32,000 nt of DNA from Erysipelotrichaceae bacterium (GTDB lineage: Bacteria > Bacillota_I > Bacilli_A > Erysipelotrichales > Erysipelotrichaceae), in the NCBI GenBank assembly GCA_963676105.1, contig OY781039.1, positions 1,830,001 through 1,862,000 on the forward strand. Reading direction: 5' to 3'. The notes beneath the pieces were generated by a model, which was not told the origin of the DNA, did no database searches, and saw only the letters and a list, made by a program, of their open reading frames with translations. How positions within the stretch are numbered: position 1 is the stretch's first letter; each line of letters starts with the position of its first letter. This document shows, in pieces, positions 2,622-9,581 of this stretch. The position numbers and the translations under genes are program-made.

Positions 2622-2639
2622 GGGTCACGATCGGGTCAC
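2622..2639 (+). promoter_or_regulatory. Tandem direct heptads GGGTCAC-N4-GGGTCAC upstream of RNA copy A
   Basis: Read directly; exactly 38 nt separate the second heptad from the TATAAT box, the same spacing as in copies B and C. Confidence 0.6.
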
Positions 2640-2689
2640 AAAATAGTGATTATTATTAGAAATCTTATAAAATTATATATAATCCTATT

Positions 2690-2795
2690 AGAAGTTATCT
2701 AGGTTTATAGCGTTATATAGAAGTTTGCATGGTACCTGAGATAAATCTCGGTGTCGGCACCATTTGTAAGTCAAGACCCAATTTGGGTCTTTTTC
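2690..2795 (+). ncRNA. Candidate ~105-nt small RNA, copy A (unknown family)
   Basis: TATAAT at 2678-2683; conserved hairpins; invariant 23-mer AAATCTCGGTGTCGGCACCATTT (2743-2765); terminator AGACCC-aattt-GGGTCT + T run; 5' end approximate; no conserved ORF. Confidence 0.55.
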
Positions 2796-2847
2796 ATTGT
2801 TAAAACTGCAGAAAAACACATTTAAACATTTAGAACCATATTTGTTT

Positions 2848-2864
2848 GGGTCACACTTGGTCAC
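2848..2864 (+). promoter_or_regulatory. Second heptad pair GGGTCAC-N3-TGGTCAC, ~50 nt downstream of copy A terminator
   Basis: Read directly; lies at the left edge of the AT-rich RiPP cassette. Confidence 0.45.
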
Positions 2865-3072
2865 TAAAAAAATTCTAAGTCTATTTTGATTTTACTTGTG
2901 TGATTGTGCAATTCTTAGTTAATATATTTTGATTACAAAAAGATGTGTTTACTATAATTGTGAAAAAAATTATGAAAAATAGAGATCAAGTTAGGAAATA
3001 TTTATATTTTTTATTTAGAACTATTTAGATGATGTATAAATTATTACTATTATTAATATTTAATATTTAAGA

Positions 3073-4677
3073 CTATTCTAACTCAATTACTTGATCAAAA
3101 TTAATATGCTCGGATGCTAATAATGCATGGCTTATATAAATCAGGGTTAAATCTTTTTGTTCAAACAGCATTTTTTTAATTGCAAGAGAATTTTCTTTGT
3201 CTATTGCGTTATCTGCTTCATCGAAAAGAATTATTTGTTTTTTGAAAAGAAGTGCTCTTGCTATTGCGATACGTTGCTTTTCGCCATTTGATAGATTTTT
3301 ACCATCTTCACCAGATTGAATAGTTAAATCGTCTATATTTTTGACTAATGTGTTTAACTTAGATAGATTTGTTTGCTCTATTACATGATTTAATTCAAAG
3401 ATTTTGCCCAAAGTGATATTATCTAGAATTGTTGAATTAAATGTATATGAACTTTGATCAATATAAGCAAAAAGTTGATTTATCGTTGTTGATGTTAAAT
3501 CATTATAATTTGTTTCATCGAGAATAATATTTCCACGATAATTTTCTAATCTTTTCATAAGGATTTTTAATAAAGTTGTTTTCCCAGTTCCACTTGGAGC
3601 GATAATGGCGATTTTTTCACCCTTGTTAATCTTTAAATTTATATTCTTTAATAACTCTTTCGAGTCATCATATTGAAAATAAAGATGTTCAATAACTAAA
3701 TGATTTTTAAATTCAAATGCATTTGTATCTAATGTGTTGTGAATCGAATCAGTATTTGAAATTCTTGAAATCAAATGTTTTGTTGAATTAATCATCGGAA
3801 TAAGTTGAGCAAATTGACCTAAAGAGTTATAAAATAGTCCAGATAAATTACCAATTGTTATTATATAAATAGGATTTACAATACCTGTATATGAAAGATA
3901 AATGAATAATATTTGATTAGAGAATTGAATAACTATACTCAATAATTGAACTAATGAATTAGTAATTGTTTGAAATCTTGATAGCGCGAACTTTTTGTTT
4001 TCTAATTCATGACTTTCAAGATTAATATTATTAATCATTGAGTCAATAGCCGAATAGTTGTCCCATATTTCATAACCATAAAGATTACTCTTAACGTTAG
4101 TTGTAAACATACTTTGTTGCTTTGAAAAATTGGATGTTAATAGTTGTGTTTTTTTACTAAACAGACCTGGAAAAGTAATCATCAATATAAAAAATACTAT
4201 TGATGAAAGTGATAACCATAAGCTTAAGTAACTAATTGCAATAAATGAAAAAACTATAGATAAAAGGAAGTGTGTAGCATCAAATAAATTTCTATAGGTT
4301 TTTTGTTCAATCAATTGCGAATCATTTATAAGCCAAGATAAATATTCGCCTTTGTCTTCTTTTATAAAATCAGAATATTTCATATTTGAGACAGAACGTG
4401 CAATCAAATTCCTATAATTAAAATTCAATCGACTAATAATATATTCTTTTAAAGTGATTCTTAAATTTTCAATTAATATATAGGCAAACCACATCAATAG
4501 CACAGTTAATGTAACAGTCATCGTTAAATTAAATCCATTGAAGTTTATAAGTGAACCAATGATCTCAGCAGCTTTAAAATTAATATAAATATTTAATAGT
4601 ATTGAACAAATATCTAAAATAACAAAAGATAATATTTGATGAAACTTCCCTTGTGCAATCTTTATAAGATTTTTCAT
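3073..4677 (-). CDS. ABC exporter, fused transmembrane + ATP-binding domains (RiPP export/immunity candidate)
   Basis: N-terminal ~6 TM region; Walker A APSGTGKTT, signature LSNGEKQR, Walker B ILFDEADN; ATG overlaps TGA of upstream rSAM gene (ATGA). Confidence 0.85.
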   Translation of the reverse strand: MKNLIKIAQGKFHQILSFVILDICSILLNIYINFKAAEIIGSLINFNGFNLTMTVTLTVLLMWFAYILIENLRITLKEYIISRLNFNYRNLIARSVSNMKYSDFIKEDKGEYLSWLINDSQLIEQKTYRNLFDATHFLLSIVFSFIAISYLSLWLSLSSIVFFILMITFPGLFSKKTQLLTSNFSKQQSMFTTNVKSNLYGYEIWDNYSAIDSMINNINLESHELENKKFALSRFQTITNSLVQLLSIVIQFSNQILFIYLSYTGIVNPIYIITIGNLSGLFYNSLGQFAQLIPMINSTKHLISRISNTDSIHNTLDTNAFEFKNHLVIEHLYFQYDDSKELLKNINLKINKGEKIAIIAPSGTGKTTLLKILMKRLENYRGNIILDETNYNDLTSTTINQLFAYIDQSSYTFNSTILDNITLGKIFELNHVIEQTNLSKLNTLVKNIDDLTIQSGEDGKNLSNGEKQRIAIARALLFKKQIILFDEADNAIDKENSLAIKKMLFEQKDLTLIYISHALLASEHINFDQVIELE

Positions 4678-8065: not shown

Positions 8066-8079
8066 TGCGTATTTACGCA
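8066..8079. promoter_or_regulatory. Palindrome TGCGTA-tt-TACGCA (operator candidate O2) in the 5' leader of the ATPase gene
   Basis: Same 6+2+6 core as O1; a 23-nt direct repeat (GCATnAAAATGCGTAnnTACGCA) is shared by both sites. Confidence 0.5.
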
Positions 8080-8096
8080 AAAAAAGGAAATATATC

Positions 8097-9350
8097 ATGG
8101 AAATAAAAAGAACTAAGTATTTGGAAAAGTTGATCATAAGAAAACATAATAACCTTGTAAAAATCATTACAGGTATTCGTAGATGTGGGAAATCTTATTT
8201 ATTGTTTTACTTATTCTATGACCATTTAGTTGAAAATGGAGTCAATAACTCTCATATAATAAAAATCGCTCTAGATGATTGGGCAAATAGAGAATTACGT
8301 AATCCAGATAATTTATATAAACATATTAAGATGAATATAAAAGATGATAACGTTTACTATATCCTTTTAGATGAAGTGCAACTAGTTGAACATTTTGAGG
8401 ATGTACTAAATGGACTTTTACATATAAAAAATTGTGATATATATGTTACAGGTAGCAATGCAAAATTTTTGTCAAAAGATATCATTACCGAGTTTAGAGG
8501 AAGAGGAGATCAAATTCAACTATATCCTCTCAGTTTTTCTGAGTTTTTATCCACTTTCAAAGGGGATAAGAATGAAGCTTGGAAAGAATATATGGTTTAT
8601 GGAGGGTTACCAAATATTACTTTACTGAAATCTGAAGAACATAAAAAAGAGTATTTAAATAACCTTTTAAAAGAAACTTATTTAACAGATATTATCGAAA
8701 GACATAATATAAGAAATGATTCTGAACTATCGGAAATACTTAATGTATTAGCATCTTCAATTGGTTCATTAACAAACCCTAGTAAGCTGGTAAATACCTT
8801 TAAAAGTTTGAAGAAAATTGATATTAGTGCGCATACAGTAAAGTCATATTTTGAATATTTTGAAGATTCATTTTTAATTGAAAGTTCAATGAGATATGAC
8901 GTTAAAGGTAAGAAATATATCAATACACCTTATAAATTTTATTTTACTGACATGGGATTAAGGAATGCTAAATTGAATTTTCGTCAACTAGAAGAAAATC
9001 ATATTATGGAAAATATTGTTTTCAATGAATTAAAAGTTAGAGGTTATTCTGTGGACGTAGGTGTTGTTGTTCTAAACACAAAGGATAGTAATGGAAAAAG
9101 TATTCGAAAACAATTAGAAATAGATTTTATATGCAATAGAGGTGAGCAAAAATACTATATACAATCAGCCTATAGAATTGACACTGATGAAAAAGAATTT
9201 CAAGAACTACAATCTTTTAGAAACATAAATGACTCGTTCAAAAAGATAATTATTATTAAAGATAGAAACGTCATAAACAAAGATGAAGAAGGTTATCTGA
9301 GAATAGGTCTATTTGATTTTTTGTTAAATGAAAATAGCCTAGATTATTGA
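8097..9350 (+). CDS. AAA_14-type ATPase with DUF4143-like C-terminal domain
   Basis: Walker A GIRRCGKS, Walker B LLDEVQ; C-terminal LEIDF...IQSAY block; start chosen at MEIKRTKYLEKL, downstream of the promoter and an AAGGA SD. Confidence 0.8.
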   Translation: MEIKRTKYLEKLIIRKHNNLVKIITGIRRCGKSYLLFYLFYDHLVENGVNNSHIIKIALDDWANRELRNPDNLYKHIKMNIKDDNVYYILLDEVQLVEHFEDVLNGLLHIKNCDIYVTGSNAKFLSKDIITEFRGRGDQIQLYPLSFSEFLSTFKGDKNEAWKEYMVYGGLPNITLLKSEEHKKEYLNNLLKETYLTDIIERHNIRNDSELSEILNVLASSIGSLTNPSKLVNTFKSLKKIDISAHTVKSYFEYFEDSFLIESSMRYDVKGKKYINTPYKFYFTDMGLRNAKLNFRQLEENHIMENIVFNELKVRGYSVDVGVVVLNTKDSNGKSIRKQLEIDFICNRGEQKYYIQSAYRIDTDEKEFQELQSFRNINDSFKKIIIIKDRNVINKDEEGYLRIGLFDFLLNENSLDY

Positions 9351-9406
9351 AATATTTAAATTAATGTTAAATGAGATTCTAGCTATTTTAAAATAATAAA
9401 TTATTT

Positions 9407-9424
9407 GGGTCACGCCAGGGTCAC
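9407..9424 (+). promoter_or_regulatory. Tandem direct heptads GGGTCAC-N4-GGGTCAC upstream of RNA copy C
   Basis: Read directly; 38 nt to the TATAAT box. Confidence 0.6.
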
Positions 9425-9474
9425 GAAAAAGTGGTTATTGATAGAAATCTTATAGAATTATGTATAATCATATT

Positions 9475-9581
9475 AGAAGTTATCTAGGTTTATAGCGTTT
9501 TATAGAAATTTACATAGTACTTGAGAGAAATCTCGGTGTCGGCACCATTTACGAGTCAAGACCCAGTTTGGGTCTTTTTTT
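9475..9581 (+). ncRNA. Candidate ~105-nt small RNA, copy C
   Basis: TTGATA (9438-9443) and TATAAT (9463-9468); invariant 23-mer at 9528-9550; terminator AGACCC-agttt-GGGTCT + T7. Confidence 0.55.

Follow-up and report, generated by a model that had tools for sequence, protein, structure and literature searches.

What kind of element is repeated three times within 7 kb of an Erysipelotrichaceae chromosome, with a promoter-like box near one end and a terminator at the other? The stretch analysed here, called the window below, consists of 32,000 nucleotides (nt) from an Erysipelotrichaceae bacterium (GenBank assembly GCA_963676105.1, contig OY781039.1, positions 1,830,001 to 1,862,000 of the forward strand), and an earlier note on it had proposed three diverged copies of a gene for a structured RNA of about 105 nt without a known family. 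On balance, and with a confidence slightly above even, we read the three units, designated A, B and C, as chimeric attachment (att) modules, each made of a left arm, a core and a right arm, in tandem islands that target tRNA genes and lack an integrase of their own. This reading is built on the tRNA identity of the core, the arrangement of units and islands in arrays, the polymorphism of the islands, the crossover at the core, two clusters of heptad repeats and a fixed spacing, all of which are observed. A core taken from the end of a tRNA gene, its switch to another tRNA between clades, the reassortment of the arms and the variable blocks between units are hallmarks of the attachment sites of tRNA-targeting elements.

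The units lie on the plus strand where the earlier note had placed them, and the layout that it described was recovered in each: tandem GGGTCAC heptads, 38 nt, a TATAAT box, about 105 nt and an intrinsic terminator. In unit A, the heptad pair GGGTCAC-GATC-GGGTCAC (2622..2639), putative arm-type sites or alternatively an activator site, is followed after 38 nt by the -10-like box TATATAAT (2676..2683, with TATAAT at 2678-2683), which has no recognisable -35 element. The predicted transcript (2690..2795, about 105 nt) would comprise a conserved 5' region of 47 nt, a degenerate T-arm-like hairpin, a tRNA 3' end, a spacer and the terminator (2773..2795). Unit B has a heptad pair at 7669..7685, TATAAT at 7724-7729 and a predicted transcript at 7736..7840, with the core, again identified as the tRNA-Thr 3' end, at 7793-7808 and the terminator at 7819-7840; in unit C the heptad pair is at 9407..9424, TATAAT at 9463-9468 and the predicted transcript at 9475..9581, with the same core at 9532-9547 and the terminator at 9558-9581. 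The heptad spacer is 4 nt in units A and C and 3 nt in unit B, and the gap from the second heptad to TATAAT is 38 nt in all three.

A second pair of heptads past the terminator was overlooked in the earlier note. It stands about 50 nt beyond the terminator of unit A (GGGTCAC-ACTT-GGTCAC, 2848-2865), within a right arm (2796..2890, plus strand) that also holds phased A-tracts and a conserved TATTTT about 17 nt beyond the pair, and it recurs in degenerate form, GGTCCAC-AGCT-GGGTCTC (7904-7921), together with A-tracts in the right arm of unit B (7841..7921, plus strand). Right-arm A-tracts and heptads are absent from unit C, which is attR-like in this respect. The 23-mer AAATCTCGGTGTCGGCACCATTT, invariant among the copies, occurs exactly three times in the window, where none is expected, and GGGTCAC occurs seven times against 0.72 expected, every time in or beside a unit. 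The three unit terminators took the top ranks in a terminator scan of the window. No further heptad pair was found in the window, the region upstream of the two-component operon included, and a covariance model built from the three copies detected no additional copy within it. The count of about ten differences between A and C, given in the earlier note, holds for the transcribed part (11) and not for the whole unit, in which 22 of 174 positions differ; copy B is indeed more diverged, with 38-41 differences as against those 22, and of these differences the promoter holds 19 and the first 25 transcribed nt hold 8.

Judged by its sequence, the invariant core of the units is the last 16 bases of tRNA-Thr. 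In unit A it occupies positions 2747..2762 of the plus strand, inside the 23-mer (2743-2765), and can be divided into the 3' strand of the T-stem (CTCGG, 2747-2751), the 3' strand of the acceptor stem (TGTCGGC, 2752-2758), the discriminator A (2759) and CCA (2760-2762). Closely related strains were found through a neighbouring GH1 protein of 99% identity. The related contig L142 starts with TCCGAGTTCGATTCTCGGTGTCGGCACCA, a canonical T-arm (CCGAG-TTCGATT-CTCGG) followed by the acceptor strand TGTCGGC, A73 and CCA, and Rfam scores this start as a 5'-truncated tRNA. Beyond the CCA, the contig continues with the spacer, the terminator and the right arm of the unit that lies upstream of the gene for the ATPase AAA_14 in the related locus L140, with one mismatch. 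Another relative, L191, starts with ATTCTCGGTGTCGGCACCA and a different terminator, and its T-arm lies directly upstream of a gene for a protein of 192 amino acids (aa), NTP_transferase, TraB and cdaA, which follow the array region in L140; NTP_transferase, TraB and cdaA also follow the array in the window. When viral contigs were searched with the pattern TTCGAWT-N5-TGTCGGCACCA, tRNA-Thr accounted for 15 of the 19 tRNAs called.

The sister clade has the invariant block TCCCATCATCCGCTCCA instead, which equals a tRNA-Gly 3' end; the tRNA-Gly encoded in the window ends in CCCCTCATCTGCTCCA. The 17-mer from the tRNA-Gly end terminates at least 10 tRNA-Gly genes in viral contigs, and it also stands alone, behind unrelated upstream sequence, in about 10 viral contigs; in one example it lies near the contig end, about 1.4 kb past an endolysin gene. 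Such stand-alone copies near the ends of viral contigs are as expected of prophage att sites. The 5' 47 nt of the unit have no tRNA similarity (z <= 0.6 in a shuffle test), and since only the 3' piece is tRNA-like, the unit has the appearance of a displaced fragment. Metagenome assemblies made independently (Logan and ENA) break in or beside the core (L142 1-30, L143 1-20 and L191 1-20), which fits a core that is repeated in many copies and common to the units and to a true tRNA gene in those populations.

Homologous units, about 20 in number, were found in six related Erysipelotrichaceae genomes. The search pattern was the promoter architecture, GGGTCAC-N3/4-GGGTCAC-N35-41-TAWAAT, which gave 14 sites in five Erysipelotrichaceae/Bacillota genomes, and behind each of the 14 come a homologous body of 105-113 nt and a terminator; a second model (R2) gave 18 units, of which one lacks the left arm and another is decayed throughout. 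The exact 23-mer, recommended as a probe in the earlier note, found no match in representative genomes. It is clade-specific, and the invariant block of the relatives is UCCCAUCAUCCGCUCCAU, on the common skeleton UC.GC.CCAU, while the 5' half of the unit stays homologous between clades with different tRNA ends. An 18-mer scan of metagenome contigs returned 120 chance matches in GC-rich coding DNA, and BLAST searches of phages and plasmids, as well as scans of viral contigs for the promoter or the three-heptad pattern, returned nothing.

Over 19 units, the length from the heptads to the CCA shows no net change, and the heptads, TGTATAAT and the core are the invariant elements. Downstream of many units there are phased A-tracts and a second cluster, GTGACCC-N4-GGGTCAC-N4-GGGTCAT, and the heptad clusters thus found on both sides are separated from the core by about 107 nt on its upstream side and about 85 nt on its downstream side. 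By analogy, this two-cluster geometry is attP-like. Reading GGGTCAC and GTGACCC as the ends of an inverton was rejected, because the window units have no inverted heptad and the inversion of a self-contained unit would change nothing.

In every genome the units form arrays of a single orientation, and the gene blocks that separate them are variable and poor in GC. Besides the three in the window, at least five same-strand units lie in UBA8511 (at about 507.1, 508.7, 519.8, 526.8 and 539.6 kb), four same-strand units in OY760660 (257.3, 259.1, 262.3 and 264.3 kb) and two in OW818653. Genes between the units of relatives include HicAB, an immunity protein, an amidase, insertion sequence (IS) fragments, an agr-like locus and helix-turn-helix (HTH) regulators, and also folate and riboflavin operons. 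The GC content of the blocks from A to C (about 3-9 kb in the window) is 25-27%, as against about 34% for flanking genes. Units A and B enclose an island of 4.8 kb with a low GC content of about 25% and its genes on the minus strand (2891..7668), and units B and C enclose a single-gene block with an AAA_14/DUF4143 ATPase gene on the plus strand (8097..9350). The A-B island is absent from L140-L142, and an HTH_3 block stands to the right of unit C in L140-L143 and is absent from the window, which carries a different segment there. L140 lacks the 4.8-kb island, and its unit upstream of AAA_14 is a hybrid that changes at the core from an arm of type A on the left to one of type B on the right. 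The units of L122, L133b and L134, from three species, have a common left flank and left arm; despite this common flank, the sequences to the right of the CCA are unrelated in L122 and L133b, and L134 ends at the core. One copy has decayed (L137 3111-3216, within 3050-3216; DPJD01000001.1 at about 507.1 kb): its heptads read CTGGGTTTAATACTGGTTGTAT and its core TTTCATCATTTGCTCTAT, with mostly C-to-T changes, which is the appearance of a unit without selection.

We infer a recombinase, the use of the heptads as its arm sites, present activity and transcription of the units, and these would fit together as follows. A tyrosine integrase, the most likely type of enzyme, would be supplied in trans, not being encoded in the window, would bind the GGGTCAC heptads as arm-type sites and would exchange strands inside the identical core. 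Upon integration, the element's copy of the tRNA 3' end with its terminator (the right arm) would come to lie behind the tRNA body and restore the gene, and the displaced tRNA fragment would land behind the element's other arm, the left one. Repeated integration into resident sites would stack islands by accretion and leave internal junctions composed of left arm, core and right arm. Units A and B, with both arms, would be such internal junctions, and unit C would be the rightmost junction, where left arm and core meet the chromosomal flank. Transcription from the -10 box of the left arm would enter the displaced tRNA fragment and stop at the tRNA-type terminator, so that an RNA of about 105 nt may arise as a side or accessory product. 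The islands would target tRNA-Thr here and tRNA-Gly in the sister clade. The att-site and small RNA (sRNA) readings are compatible with each other, as an att module may also be transcribed.

Several facts weigh against the att-module reading. The open reading frames (ORFs) of the window and 20 sampled ORFs of the arrays, where not all ORFs and array ends were readable, include no Phage_integrase or serine recombinase, and about 100 kb of the relatives' arrays gave IS transposases and no site-specific recombinase. No intact tRNA-Thr was found in the window, and no tRNA adjoining the relatives' arrays; the T-arm with the core was seen in L142 and L191 only at contig starts, with the tRNA body cut off. 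Neither in L140 nor in the window does the array end on its right in a clean attR/attB junction. Homologous recombination between paralogous units would likewise cross over in the longest identical stretch and may underlie the crossover at the core. Moreover, 18 of 19 units keep the -10 box TGTATAAT unchanged and at a constant spacing from the heptads, which an att arm does not obviously need. Finally, units with the same left flank recur in three species (L122, L133b and L134) while one copy (L137) is fully decayed; recurrence and decay are signs of selection that has been maintained, as would suit a host gene and an active site alike.

That the unit belongs to no known RNA family, as the earlier note had said, was borne out: Rfam was empty at the units at the gathering score and at E <= 10, in the window and in the relatives, where the searches returned only tRNAs and one FMN riboswitch. 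The description as structured is right for the terminator and overstated for the rest. Fold z-scores are -1.2 to -1.9 in the window units and -0.4 to -1.9 when the relatives are included, and only two 4-bp hairpins and the terminator are consistently predicted in the window units. The 5' hairpin and the C-G to U.G change, offered as signs of preserved structure, fail across the wider family; the window's second hairpin (GGUG-UCGG-CACC) is not formed in the relatives, and the middle hairpin has three alternative solutions (GAGA/UCUC, GGGAU/AUCCC, and AUGG/CCAU or UUGG/CCAA). The proposed check for covariation in homologues was positive for the terminator stem, with compensatory changes in 5 of 7 pairs; 86.6% of the cells of this helix are paired, and none of 500 shuffles matched the observed score.

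It had also been noted that no ORF is conserved, the ATG of copy A being ATA in B and C, and we found the same. A conserved small ORF on either strand was rejected, because stops and frame shifts vary among the copies; the minus-strand ATG is the complement of CCA plus T. Target prediction, likewise suggested earlier, gave no duplex above background against the 33 translation-initiation regions of the window (best -18 kcal/mol), and the relatives' loci gave only chance complementarity of 9-10-mers. A partner in a type I toxin-antitoxin system was rejected too, with no convergent small hydrophobic ORF and no bidirectional terminator. A sigma-70 scan does not call the unit promoter because no -35 element is present. 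The interpretation of the earlier note is thus supported in part: the unit is a conserved module that extends from a -10 box to a terminator, but a novel structured RNA with a functional core at the RNA level is not its best reading, since the block is a tRNA 3' end and changes in the sister clade, the halves reassort and the units delimit variable blocks.

Regulated sibling sRNAs nevertheless form a possible, if tentative, alternative, in which a transcription factor, likeliest of the OmpR/PhoB type, would bind the heptads at about -68 to -51 of a promoter without a -35 element, and the RNA of about 105 nt would act in trans through a single-stranded C-rich block; equally tentatively, either the gene would have arisen from its tRNA-like 3' domain, by exaptation of an att site, or this domain would functionally mimic the end of a tRNA, and the arrays would arise by recombination between paralogues. 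Dependence on an activator suits the invariant TGTATAAT with its weak -35, and a 7-bp heptad with a 4-bp spacer matches the operators of the OmpR/PhoB family as described in PMC4832192. The consensus of the PHO-box unit, GG/TTCAYYYRG/CG, opens like GGTCAC, and the LisR-dependent lhrC promoters require a region upstream of -53. An OmpR-family pair is encoded in the window at 20403-22429 and is 85-97% identical across Erysipelotrichaceae genomes, including one with units; however, the heptads have no linked regulator, and the window holds no other heptad pair. The terminator stems covary, the block of the relatives is predicted to be unpaired and carries UCCC/CUCC motifs as in LhrC and other Firmicute sRNAs, and the 2-5 copies per genome can be compared with the 2-6 copies of the cia-dependent small RNAs (csRNAs). 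The recurrence of same-left-flank units across species, while one copy decayed, is equally welcome to this reading, but folding is weak (z -0.4 to -1.9), and no complementary target appears in the translation-initiation regions of the window, the best duplex lying within background. What the sRNA reading leaves unexplained is that the block is exactly a tRNA 3' end, with a boundary as in a phage att core; nor does it account for the switch of the sister clade to another tRNA end with a homologous 5' half, for the second heptad cluster past the terminator, or for the left and right halves that reassort at the block.

Other readings join RNA and recombination. It seems improbable, but worth stating, that the unit is no passive att scar but an RNA-producing one in which the left arm holds a fixed promoter, the 3' part of the short RNA equals the DNA target, and the RNA, or transcription across the core as such, has a share in the choice or control of the site for an unrecognised recombinase, within an integron-like array of tRNA-core cassettes kept across Erysipelotrichaceae species. 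In a related version, which we hold to be quite unlikely, a 5' scaffold and a segment identical to the DNA target help a recombinase or transposase to recognise or retain its site, with a logic like that of the bridge RNAs of IS110 or the guide RNAs at transposon ends. The order of a scaffold and a clade-specific "target" segment of 16-17 nt under a highly conserved promoter would suit such a module, as would its position at recombination junctions and the lack of a classical integrase in the window and the sampled array ORFs; yet no IS110-, TnpB- or IscB-like or other conserved protein gene stands beside the units, the scaffold is short and poorly structured, the spacer and terminator that follow the target-like segment keep it away from the RNA end, and att recombination by protein only covers the same facts. 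Very little credence can be given to decayed duplicates of whole tRNAs, that is, a pseudo-tRNA array, or to a selfish repeat resembling a miniature inverted-repeat transposable element (MITE), even though the predicted distance of 73 nt from +1 to the CCA is tRNA-sized and multi-copy units lie near IS fragments. A whole-tRNA pseudogene was rejected on the shuffle test, in which the 5' 47 nt were no closer to tRNA-Thr or tRNA-Gly than shuffled sequence; in addition, an acceptor stem cannot form, ARAGORN and Rfam call no tRNA at the units, and the 5' half is conserved between clades with different tRNA ends. A MITE-like repeat is opposed by the absence of terminal inverted repeats and target-site duplications and by homology that begins exactly at the heptads, with unrelated flanks.

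The att-module reading can be placed among known systems. An attP of the lambda type has a core flanked by arm-type integrase sites and bending sites. The present module resembles it in the short identical core, the clusters of short repeats on both sides at about 85-110 bp, the 10-11-bp phasing, the phased A-tracts and the strictly fixed arm length; it differs in that GGGTCAC is only a putative recombinase site and in a downstream cluster of one inverted and two direct heptads, and Firmicutes are not known to possess IHF. Islands in tRNA genes restore the gene, and a displaced fragment marks the ends of the island (PMC4383910); integrase-less cis-mobilizable elements (CIMEs) stack by accretion and so generate chimeric internal att sites (PMC5704250). 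With such islands and CIMEs (ICESt1/ICESt3-type; the tRNA-Lys arrays of S. agalactiae) our arrays, on this reading, have in common the direct repeats of a tRNA 3' end that bound strain-variable islands, an element-borne copy with a terminator that would restore the tRNA, chimeric internal att sites and islands without an integrase. In contrast to them, no integrase or intact tRNA was seen in the sequence covered, the islands, of 1.5 and 4.8 kb, are very small, a near-invariant -10 box forms part of a conserved module that is long, with about 300 bp, same-left-flank units occur in three species, and at least five units extend over about 33 kb in one genome. Integron attC arrays likewise consist of same-orientation recombination sites between small variable gene blocks; the sites here, however, are of about 300 bp with a tRNA core, not imperfect palindromes of 60-140 bp, a block contains several genes, which run in either direction and have signals of their own, and no intI was seen.

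On the side of RNA genes, the csRNAs (CiaR) and LhrC1-5 (LisR) resemble the unit in that an operator of direct repeats and a -10 box precede an RNA (here a predicted one) of about 100 nt with a terminator, in the 2-6 copies per genome, and in a conserved unpaired C-rich stretch between hairpin and terminator. They differ in their operator, TTTAAG-N5-TTTAAG at 10 nt from the -10 box as against GGGTCAC-N4-GGGTCAC at 38 nt here, and the present units have no Rfam match (gathering or E <= 10), a conserved stretch that is a tRNA 3' end, and a heptad cluster past the terminator. The operator of CtsR is a direct repeat of heptads as well, with the consensus A/GGTCAAA-NAN-A/GGTCAAA (PMC12634643). It is like the unit's pair in a tandem heptad beginning GGTCA and in the 10-bp period of unit B, but position 6 is C and not A in the present heptads, the period is 11 bp in most units, and the site is about 50-68 bp upstream of the start without overlapping the promoter. 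A CtsR box was rejected, because no unit comes within 3 mismatches of the consensus and hsp20 in the window has CIRCE instead.

If the att-module reading is right, an sRNA-like repeat with a -10 box, a terminator and covariation is an attractive false lead, in that what looks like its "seed" is the 3' end of a tRNA and its copies mark the junctions of islands. The module itself, of about 300 bp with GGGTCAC arm repeats and a tRNA-Thr or tRNA-Gly core, would be a previously undescribed conserved attachment module, found neither in Rfam nor in those phage and plasmid collections that were searched. It would organise arrays of accessory genes in a poorly studied clade from gut and environmental samples, including an island with a quorum-sensing-like radical-SAM peptide system. 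Should the module also be transcribed, it would offer a simple case of att sites becoming RNA genes, or of RNA in site-specific recombination.

This island, between units A and B, carries on the minus strand genes for an ABC exporter (3073-4677), a radical SAM/SPASM maturase (4674-5921; best match TIGR04463, below cutoff), a Cys-rich peptide of 26 aa with a strong ribosome-binding site (5969-6049), a signal-peptide-like ORF of 33 aa, MKKYLITCALLFLILGINTVEIKPRLFCYTWEC (about 6110-6211), and an orphan protein of 416 aa (6321-7571) whose N-terminus resembles an XRE-type HTH and which matches no family or PDB entry. Taken together, 3073-7571 looks like a quorum-sensing-regulated cluster for a ribosomally synthesised and post-translationally modified peptide (RiPP). 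Cassettes of the cell-cell-signalling type are present in three arrays, as an agr-like locus in L133 and as HTH/TPR-like regulators in the window and L124. The agr-like locus (L133 5692-7907, minus strand; OW818653.1 at about 821.7-823.9 kb) encodes a LytTR-domain protein, an AgrC-like kinase and an AgrB-like protein and lies directly upstream of a unit. A link of the units to the neighbouring HTH/TPR-like regulators was considered and rejected, because the proteins of the window and L124 have no detectable kinship and match no known family or PDB entry.

Just upstream of AAA_14, at 7985-8085, there are two near-identical palindromes, ATGAAAATGCGTAAGTACGCACTTTCAT and GCATAAAAATGCGTATTTACGCAAAAA, which are kept in L140 and may be an operator pair or a structure of the 5' untranslated region. 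Right after unit C, at 9585-9614, a perfect 8-bp hairpin, CCAACTAC-N14-GTAGTTGG, lies in the segment that is replaced in L140-L143. To the left of unit A, a Ferric_reduct-like membrane protein (2072-2608) has only one relative above 36% identity (53%) among 5.8 billion proteins; its gene is therefore a rare accessory gene as well, and the array probably extends to the left of the window. In UBA8511 (L136 6814-7343), a unit with a downstream heptad cluster precedes an FMN riboswitch and ribD by about 170 nt, in SKS3.bin96 (L126 8-3025) two units follow just past the end of the rib operon, and in several genomes another unit adjoins the folate operon and a NADAR/YbiA-like gene. These positions place vitamin operons inside the arrays.

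Further downstream in the window, at 16136-22429, genes for an OmpR-family regulator and a histidine kinase come after cdaA (523 aa, unusually long), cdaR/ybbR and glmM; the run from glmM to the regulator and kinase has overlapping stop and start codons, and genes for the cell wall come next (Mur ligase, NUDIX and Ddl). The regulator (20403-21065) shows 81-97% identity across very many Erysipelotrichaceae metagenome proteins, and the regulator and kinase are suggested to be an essential-type two-component system of the envelope. At 29735-29815, upstream of hsp20 (29810-30232), there are two CIRCE-like elements (TTAGCACTT-N9-AGTGCTAA and TTAGCACTTAAGACAAGAGAGTGCCA), which point to control by HrcA.

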